Positions 44,390 to 45,848 of a stretch of DNA of 64,000 bases are shown piece by piece; position 1 is the stretch's first letter, and each line of letters begins with the position of its first letter. The stretch is taken from NCBI GenBank assembly GCA_951406725.2, contig OX597816.1, positions 91,698,001 to 91,762,000 of the forward strand, in the 5' to 3' direction. The DNA comes from Octopus vulgaris (lineage: Eukaryota). The notes under the pieces are model-generated. The model was not told the DNA's origin and did not search any database. It saw nothing but the letters and a program-made list of their open reading frames with translations. Both the position numbers and the translations under genes were made by a program.

Positions 44390-44689
44390 ACTTCAGGATG
44401 GAGATTTTCGGATCATGTCTGCATTTTAGAAAATTCCTGCTGGCTCTTTGCAATCTGCATGGTGGGACCACATCTGGAAAGCAATAGCCAAGGCTGAAGG
44501 GAGACAATCGTTTACCATCATGGTGCATTTTTTTAAATTGTCACTGCTCCTTATTTACATTCAACGGATATTTATCCTCGTCTTGTTTGTTGTTAACACA
44601 ACGTTTCGGCTGATATACACTCCAGCCTTCTTCTGGTGTCTTGGGGAAAATTCAAACCTGGGTTCTCATTCCTAAGGTATTTTTCGATG

Positions 44690-44721
<32 letters not shown>

Positions 44722-44861
44722 GTTATTGTTCAGGTCACTGCTTGGAATCAAACTTGCAATCTTGAGGTTAGTAGCTCGTGCTTTTAACCACTACACTCTT
44801 AACCCCAAGATTCCAAGTTCGATTCTAAGCAGTGGCCTGAAAAATAACAATAATAATAATG

Positions 44862-44924
<63 letters not shown>

Positions 44925-45515
44925 GTAATAATAACATCGAAAAATACCTTAGGAATGAGAATCCAGGTTTGAATTTTCCCCAAGACACCTGAAGAAGGCT
45001 GAAGGGTATATCAACCAAAACACTGTGTTAACAACAAGCAAGATGAGGACAAATATCCGTCAAATGTAAATTATGTAAATAACGTACACAATTCCTCACC
45101 TCTTAAATATAGAACTGTATCACCACTCCTTTTCATACTTTTTATGAATTGGATTGATATGTGCAGCTGTTGTGGAAGTGGTATCACAATCTGTGGGCAT
45201 AGGATTGGTCAACTGATAATTACAGATGAGATGGTACTATTTTGCTCATCAGAAGGTGGTCTCCAGCATGACTGAATGAATATGATTGCAACTACAAGTG
45301 GTCAAAATGTGGTTCTTTCAAAAAATGCCTGGAGTAACATTATTTGACAGGGTTCATAACTCGGAAGTCAGGGAGTCTCTCCAGGTGGGGCTGTTACTTC
45401 TTCAAATTGAGAAGTCACAACTCCACTACTACAGACATGTGATGAGAATACTGCAGAAAATAAAACACAAGGCCCATTCTTCAAGACAAGCCAACTGGCA
45501 GGAGACCTAGGGGAA
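44390..45515 (+). mobile_element. RTE-type LINE relic interrupted by a palindromic insert
   Basis: LSPLL|FILFMNWID spans the insertion; downstream GVTLFDRVHNSEVRESL..IEKSQLHYYRHVMR. Confidence 0.7.
44553..45119. mobile_element. Head-to-head palindromic tRNA-headed element carrying hammerhead cores
   Basis: ~240-270 bp inverted arms, A/B-box-like head, (AAT)n, GACAC-CTGAAGA-A-GGCTG..CAGCC-GAAACGTT-GTGTT consensus; 12-bp TSD. Confidence 0.75.
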
Positions 45516-45722: not shown

Positions 45723-45848
45723 ATCAAAATAAGCAACAAGGATATCCAGAGGTAATGCAGTACGATTGTTTCATGCGACTCCATTTAATTGAACAATGCA
45801 AACAATTGTACTGCATTACCTCTGGATATCCTTGTTGGTTATTTTGAT
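45723..45848. repeat. 49-bp near-perfect inverted repeat with 28-nt spacer
   Basis: ATCAAAATAAGCAACAAGGATATCCAGAGGTAATGCAGTACGATTGTTT and its reverse complement; adjacent to (TA)n. Confidence 0.85.

Follow-up and report, generated by a model that had tools for sequence, protein, structure and literature searches.

A double-armed Penelope/Poseidon-type insertion in the octopus genome and a tRNA-like segment as its candidate Pol III promoter

Penelope-like elements (PLEs) are the closest described relatives of the sequence analysed here. As far as the available parts of the sources go, Poseidon PAc from Anolis (PMC11167929) and PLEs in general (PMC8557442; Craig et al. 2021) encode a reverse transcriptase (RT) with a C-terminal GIY-YIG domain, their pseudo-LTR runs into the ORF's start, a hammerhead ribozyme lies over that start, and the signature of a Penelope insertion is an inverted 5'-truncated copy with a 30-40-bp tail at one end. 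In PAc, RT starts at two internal sites with the tail located between them, nicking and extension affect both target strands, and the hammerhead is dispensable for insertion of this lizard element in vitro (PMC11167929). The octopus element shares the domain order, the pseudo-LTR and hammerhead over the ORF start, the inverted truncated copy, the one-end tail, the two internal RT starts and the AT-rich targets. Compared with what those accounts state in the parts at hand, only the octopus element has a tRNA-like segment with A and B boxes, an (AAT)n tract, copies that mostly begin at the segment and a sense strand with no T≥4 runs.

To our knowledge, the Pol III promoters known in retrotransposons belong to non-coding passengers (SINEs, TRIMp3). 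Octopus carries the tRNA-derived SINEs OK, OR1 and OR2, reportedly described by Ohshima and Okada in 1994, possibly with a tRNA-Arg-like head; tRNA-Arg is a weak best match for the segment studied here. OR2 is classed as a CORE-SINE in the part of the source available (PMC4758252), whereas here the head is directly followed by (AAT)n. The short form of the element may nevertheless be filed as a SINE in Repbase, Dfam or SINEBase.

Four further systems offer partial parallels, again within the available portions of their accounts. Penelope of Drosophila virilis has, as is proposed for the octopus element, an internal promoter in the pseudo-LTR that fixes the RNA start, but it is a TATA-less, LINE-like promoter (initiator/DPE) with an intron, not a tRNA-like A/B box (Schostak et al. 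2008, PMC2377424). The SM-alpha SINE of Schistosoma is a dispersed repeat in which a Pol III promoter is followed by a type I hammerhead; it is a non-coding, often tandem SINE, while the candidate promoter studied here sits in the terminal repeat of a coding element inserted head to head (PMC6765202). TRIMp3 elements (Cassandra, Helenus, Ajax) bear, as is proposed here, a small-RNA-derived Pol III promoter in the terminal repeat, yet are non-autonomous LTR elements of up to ~1.3 kb, in contrast with an autonomous PLE of 2.7 kb; Pol III has been argued to be too weakly processive for autonomous elements, and Pol II is held to be obligatory for autonomous partners (Kojima 2024, PMC10886601). Non-LTR retrozymes, which are PLE derivatives, are similarly short pLTR-derived units with type I hammerheads, but are defined by head-to-tail tandem repeats, and their description, in the part available, mentions no tRNA-like promoter (bioRxiv 10.64898/2026.07.22.740005).

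The inverted insertion and its target site

The window is the whole stretch of 64,000 nucleotides of Octopus vulgaris DNA that was analysed. It contains a palindrome of two divergent arms, ~90% complementary, left at 44553-44796 (minus strand) and right at 44800-45119 (plus strand). Element positions are given below relative to the tRNA-like head and to the 188-nt 'body', which corresponds to the first 55 codons of the element's ORF. The features are:

44541-44552, plus strand: target-site duplication, left copy, in SPLL codons of a decayed LINE RT; single copy in eight of nine homologous LINE loci
44553-44796, minus strand: tail-less arm, a pseudo-LTR truncated at its 5' end and spanning head position ~+15 to body position 140
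44553-44669, minus strand: start of the Penelope ORF, cut by the arm end (ATG at 44669-44667)
44595-44640, minus strand: minimal type I hammerhead of the left arm, core broken (U4 = A), stems I and II intact
44690-44730, minus strand: (AAT)n tract of the left arm, between tRNA-like segment and ORF start
44731-44796, minus strand: tRNA-like segment of the left arm, with truncated A box (44788-44796) and CpG-decayed B box (44744-44754)
44797-44799, no strand: head-to-head junction, a short element-derived snippet plus microhomology
44800-45119, plus strand: tailed arm, a pseudo-LTR from head position ~+40 to body position 188
44816-44826, plus strand: B box of the right arm (A box absent)
44840-44934, plus strand: (AAT)n tract of the right arm
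44955-45119, plus strand: codons 1-55 of the Penelope/Poseidon-type ORF, in which CpG decay has created an early stop on this arm
44984-45029, plus strand: minimal type I hammerhead of the right arm, broken at G12, stem III and stem II
45072-45119, plus strand: 48-nt 'tail', right arm only
45120-45131, plus strand: target-site duplication, right copy, whose first 3 nt are shared with the continuation of the element's ORF

Against the pseudo-LTR majority of ORF-bearing copies the left arm shows 90-94% and the right arm 93-95% identity. The arms are not equivalent, the 3' end of the left one falling 48 nt short of that of the right one. A preliminary description had recognised two divergent arms, each with an (AAT)n tract and a hammerhead core, exactly as they are seen here. 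It had also given each arm a tRNA-like head, which fails on both sides: the right arm, starting mid-head, lacks an A box; in the left one the first two A-box bases are lost and the B box is CpG-decayed. What it took for a second T-loop-like motif lies in codons 4-7 of the ORF and shows no tie to a tRNA. It had given each arm a different lesion; the left core is broken by U4 = A, and the right hammerhead has several lesions. Both hammerheads and both candidate promoters in the window are broken; the predicted family cut site in the right-arm hammerhead falls after 45024.

The outer ends are flanked by TCACTGCTCCTT (44541-44552) and TCACCACTCCTT (45120-45131), which differ by two mismatches. The 12-mer occurs once, within SPLL-type RT codons, in eight of nine homologous LINE loci (the ninth is misaligned), and the pair is thus a target-site duplication that splits the SPLL codons of a LINE, as had been proposed. 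The accompanying proposal that both mismatches stem from one CpG is plausible and no stronger, given that the Pro codon is mostly CCT in the homologous LINE loci. Homology of the left flank to these loci is weak beyond ~20 nt. The first three bases of the right copy (TCA), like two at the left junction, agree with the way the element itself continues, which leaves the boundary ambiguous by 2-3 nt.

The Rfam scan of the region returned neither a hammerhead nor a tRNA, and the loop-less hammerheads may lie outside the Rfam models; ARAGORN made zero tRNA calls over the whole window. A second inverted repeat, with 49-nt arms of 96% complementarity and a 28-nt spacer, lies at 45723-45848. Judged by its sequence, the locus holds a double-armed insertion, shortened on the 5' side, of an autonomous Penelope/Poseidon-type element, which the genome contains in very many copies.

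The autonomous element and its hammerhead

The partner ORF was traced by aligning the sequence upstream of 107 head anchors, a minority of which share an extension into an RT and GIY-YIG frame. Among 40 long copies fetched, 23 reach the end of the UTR, and in 21 of these the RT–GIY-YIG ORF continues directly into the head. The unit of ~2.7 kb consists of the ORF, a stop codon, ~25 nt, the tRNA-like segment, (AAT)n, the ATG, the hammerhead and two preferred 3' ends. The ORF, of ~838 aa, encodes RT with GIY-YIG at the C terminus; in the column majority of 38 copies the frame stays open over 798 codons, counted from codon 41. In one copy (L314) the body frame runs unbroken into the Penelope N-terminal domain, and two others (L308, L321) have the same junction. 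The motifs HLTFLCRC, DKG, YGLPKIHK, GSPLSP, YVDD, YKGET and RVEEH all lie in one frame. A Pfam search with copy L300 gave RVT_1 at E 2.7e-6, just under the cut-off, and did not match GIY-YIG, so the endonuclease assignment rests on motifs and relatives.

On this contiguity of ORF and UTR with the head in coding copies, the tRNA-like head, the (AAT)n tract and the hammerhead are the pseudo-LTR of the autonomous element, and the window insertion is a truncated copy of that element, not a separate SINE. The link to Penelope machinery that the preliminary description had drawn thereby holds, and the autonomous PLE that it had suggested looking for exists. Two expectations for a SINE likewise find no counterpart: there is no non-autonomous head apart from its partner, and instead of a 3' simple-repeat or A-rich tail in single orientation, (AAT)n is internal, the 3' ends form two fixed non-repeat zones and most insertions are double-armed.

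By every feature testable here the element belongs to the Penelope/Poseidon clade, an assignment made on motifs and architecture. The extra Zn-finger-like linker between RT and EN that, in the part of the source available, marks Neptune/Nematis (PMC8557442) is absent from the element and from P0004, and present in the Neptune-type copy L132. P0004 is a full-length relative of 847 aa, 55% identical, whose N-terminus is encoded by the hammerhead in the same way and agrees at 12 of 20 residues.

ORF variants common to at least four copies comprise 45 synonymous and 19 non-synonymous changes, against 247 and 863 among singletons, which indicates that several coding source lineages carried the pseudo-LTR. 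From this pattern, the coding lineages bearing the tRNA-like head, AAT and hammerhead were formerly under purifying selection. No intact ORF was found among the 150 scored of 9,523 candidates from a protein search, the longest open frame being 569 aa.

Other routes to the partner led elsewhere. The Pfam GIY-YIG profile led to Neptune-type families, but their 3' ends differ; 52 matches to a pattern designed for non-AAT sequence upstream revealed no recurring non-repeat sequence there; a degenerate GIY-YIG motif found other PLE families; and the 55-residue peptide yielded no long frame among the 150 scored of 37,150 candidates, and one database protein, the Octopus sinensis gene model P0001. A search for relatives' loci in metagenome contigs found none.

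Several related sequences were observed on the way. An Octopus sinensis gene model (P0001) opens with 37 residues of the element, followed by a cysteine-rich, receptor-like part with its own signal peptide, and is either an exonisation or a gene-model artefact. At G000:C2:16238375-16239143 a 3' piece of the element's ORF/UTR is repeated tandemly, the units spaced 150 nt apart. A young Neptune-type PLE family (L131-L133, L146 and many others) has many intact 781-aa frames; its 3' region holds a hammerhead-like core (U3/A8 variant) with palindromic stem III and adjoins (AT)n targets, and its ORF gave no match to solved structures. Further abundant PLE families (L241-L270; 1,832 motif matches, control 15) include some with loop-less hammerhead-like cores of their own.

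The hammerhead of the octopus element lies within the first 25 codons of the ORF. According to the available part of the report on minimal PLE hammerheads (PMC4209133; Cervera and de la Pena 2014), these have no loop 3, a palindromic 15.2-16.2, an extra base between 9 and 10.1, a G10.1-C11.1 pair and a short helix I, and occur as opposite-strand pairs 100-700 bp apart. The putative ribozyme, known here from its sequence, shares all of these motif features and shows no difference in the motif itself, in line with its earlier classification as a minimal, dimer-type hammerhead of the Penelope kind. The intact consensus that had been reconstructed from the two damaged window copies is the family state: the 42-nt form (N7=U) has 1,055 and the 36-nt form (N7=A) 508 exact genomic matches, with 0 in either reversed-pattern control. 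At non-CpG positions within the hammerhead, N7, which is free in the core, carries the sole frequent variant. The arms deviate by ~4% from the column majority at non-CpG sites, and the family is star-like, offering no stem covariation to score.

In isolation the hammerhead is predicted to fold stems I and II (z ~-1.9), and in the predicted fold of the full body a competing hairpin masks the cut site. Such masking fits the need for protein help reported for PAc. The prediction for the hammerhead is cleavage only in dimeric form or when assisted by protein.

Insertion anatomy and integration

The loci sampled were picked by similarity or by a perfect hammerhead and lie mostly on contig C1. In a set of 99 loci, 86 are complete at the 3' end, and an inverted partner arm accompanies 61 of them; a duplication scoring at least 8 joins the outer ends in 39 of the 61, as against 81 of 3,660 mismatched pairs. 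The inverted structure with target-site duplications, for which a test had been suggested, is typical of the family's insertions. Duplications measure 8-16 nt, one microsatellite case aside. The tail-less arm ends at body 137-160 of 188 in 38 of 39 well-bounded insertions; the tail is 28–51 nt long. Of 127 loci in another set, 64 combine exactly one arm that has the tail with one that lacks it, and 2 consist solely of two tailed arms. Having the further 5' reach fell equally often to either arm (31 versus 30).

Partner arms share subfamily alleles: the partner of an N7=A arm also has N7=A in 11 of 13 pairs, as against 1 of 34 for arms selected for N7=U (P 5e-8), and the window arms have in common the N7=A variant and one more. 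Both arms therefore come from one source, and the palindrome was inserted as one unit, as had been surmised. The same alleles speak against two independent insertions in opposite orientation. A long inverted repeat with a duplication could equally suggest a DNA MITE or fold-back element, but the ends are asymmetric and the inner junctions variable, where a MITE has symmetric, fixed terminal inverted repeats unconnected with an RT. This reading, named beforehand as one that would overturn the description, is refuted by the contiguity of the arms with the RT ORF; together with independent insertions we consider it exceedingly improbable. What is found instead, a pseudo-LTR in inverted arrangement that continues into the ORF start, is the arrangement of a PLE. 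The tandem organisation of retrozymes is not the rule here, short head-to-tail tandems being rare and the head-to-head arrangement present in 64 of 127 loci.

On the 5' reach, simple fold-back from the tailed arm is rejected as the mode of synthesis. The even split, with the pairing of one tailed and one tail-less arm, fits twin priming from two nicks, which we infer as the mode of integration. The element's protein would nick both target strands ~12 bp apart, and reverse transcription would be primed by each nick at an internal RNA site, at body 186-188 for one nick and at 137-160 for its counterpart. Both cDNAs would extend toward the RNA 5' end, stopping there or earlier, and would be joined head to head by microhomology into the palindrome. 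The templates of short copies would be long RNAs, through their 5' pseudo-LTR, or short RNAs made by dispersed copies, or both kinds. Where tail-less arms begin, a 9-11-bp stem was noted around A/U-rich 9-nt repeats (L080:2050-2132, z -1.7); it is possibly, by analogy, the counterpart of the stem-loop at which PAc starts reverse transcription.

The tRNA-like segment as a candidate promoter

The tRNA-like segment begins 25 nt past the stop codon, with A and B boxes at tRNA spacing (13 and 58 nt after the start) and a TATA-like TTTATAA near -30. Compared with 20 genomic tRNAs of six amino-acid types, the head matched two tRNA-Arg best, with a score of 55 (shuffled mean 35, maximum 51). Copies begin sharply at this segment: 64 of 73 arms reaching +12 stop within -12..+12, compared with 24 of 97 in the next 25 nt. 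Genome-wide, exact matches number 3,735 immediately within the start, 896 immediately beyond it and 584 at another 38 nt of distance; by these counts, which vary with the mutability of each 20-mer, roughly one head in four continues upstream.

We consider the segment likely to be a captured Pol III promoter that marks the RNA start, and we lean, with appreciable doubt, towards its acting as an internal promoter that sets the 5' end of the element RNA, which would start at the tRNA-like start. The 5'-end pile-up could also arise if the segment were a passenger or processing signal, through RT stalling or switching at the GCCC/GGGC hairpin or through RNase P-type cutting. The start is itself a small hairpin used by many junctions, the head is predicted to fold stably, and a shoulder of ends at +5..+12 lies near the equivalent of tRNA +1. 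The mode, however, is at -1..+1, six bases before that equivalent and at the far edge of the structure, not on the side where RT enters; the A and B boxes are intact and normally spaced; and ARAGORN finds no cloverleaf in the head even at a lowered threshold. We therefore rate an origin of the pile-up in stalling or processing as decidedly unlikely.

The coding strand was examined for Pol III terminators. No T≥4 run occurs on the sense strand of the 2,698-nt column majority of 38 copies, while five Neptune-type ORF regions have 1.4-4.7 per kb; natural copies contain 26 such runs scattered over 20 sites. The deficit has P values of 0.041 under codon shuffling, 0.005 under a third-position null, and 0.076 and 0.178 under Markov orders 1 and 2, and G≥4 runs are likewise absent from the majority. 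As a sign of Pol III use the deficit is modest, suggestive and not decisive. Against such use stand the uncapped transcript, the element's own hammerhead, which would cut inside the ORF if active, and one ATG upstream of the ORF start.

A division of labour would avoid the translation problem of an uncapped RNA: Pol II, by read-through or from an ordinary internal promoter, would make the full-length coding RNA, and the captured tRNA segment would drive only short Pol III RNAs, a SINE-like parasite that accounts for most copies. This is close to the SINE-like parasite of the preliminary description, of which the Pol III promoter probably stands and the separate SINE does not, the head being the pseudo-LTR of a coding element. 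In keeping with a division, among 41 copies selected by the head 35 have their start there, and a foreign module of 570 nt recurs inside the AAT tract (L002, L005, L025, L026, L027, L327, L348). Yet the 41 head-selected matches lead to the body in 36 cases and are preceded by the UTR in 6, so the head is not an independent family; it belongs to coding lineages, leaving no SINE-specific sequence. Nor does a division predict the absence of T≥4 runs in the ORF, and 8 of 70 flanks match the ORF continuation 4-7 nt past the tail, weakly suggesting templates that run into the ORF. We regard separate Pol II and Pol III transcripts as unlikely, if less so than stalling or processing. The module itself, ~570 nt long and in one orientation, represents either a composite non-autonomous subfamily or a retroposon targeting (AAT)n.

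Under Pol III transcription from the segment, intact-head copies would be potential sources of short transcripts with both priming sites, giving rise to self-made SINE-like copies; short copies with intact A and B boxes could have acted as SINE-like sources. In its fullest form this reading holds that a coding Penelope is transcribed end to end by Pol III from a captured tRNA promoter, that its 2.7-kb coding strand has been purged of terminators, and that its pseudo-LTR is a self-made SINE spreading tens of thousands of self-pairing, ADAR-edited hairpins in octopus genomes. We offer the whole of it tentatively, as a possibility that is on balance doubtful. Among the titles and beginnings of abstracts that our literature search covered, none described a tRNA-derived promoter in a PLE; the sharp beginning of copies at the tRNA-like start and the sense strand with no T≥4 runs appear to be new here.

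Raw reads from three RNA runs of one organism label, possibly another species, were unstranded. They cover one copy on both strands, mostly continuing into unlike sequence, and on two copies the ends of these unstranded, fragmented reads form no pile-up at the cut site or the start. At L038:1453-1623, 12 A/T sites show A>G or T>C at 6-28% in RNA reads and at 0-6% in 157 genomic arms, which served as the DNA reference; rates at two G>A sites and at the CpG sites are elevated as well. None of the 12 has a 5' G neighbour, and 8 lie outside the hammerhead used to select loci. The excess is likely ADAR editing of inverted-arm hairpins. In the available parts of the literature, lizard Penelope is heavily edited, and octopus is rich in double-stranded RNA with very high repeat editing (PMC5625713).

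As a natural data set on how Penelope integrates, the family is unusually large. Its pairing of a tailed with a tail-less arm from one source, duplications of 8-16 bp and truncation that is symmetric speak for twin priming, which would extend the in vitro result on PAc. Each insertion is ready-made double-stranded RNA and may feed the very high repeat editing of octopus, as reported in the accessible part of that source (PMC5625713). A Pol III promoter of its own would be unusual for an enzyme-encoding retrotransposon. If the Pol III reading is true, an uncapped 2.7-kb Pol III RNA would be translatable into a retrotransposase, and one route to the origin of SINEs would lead from within their own partner element.
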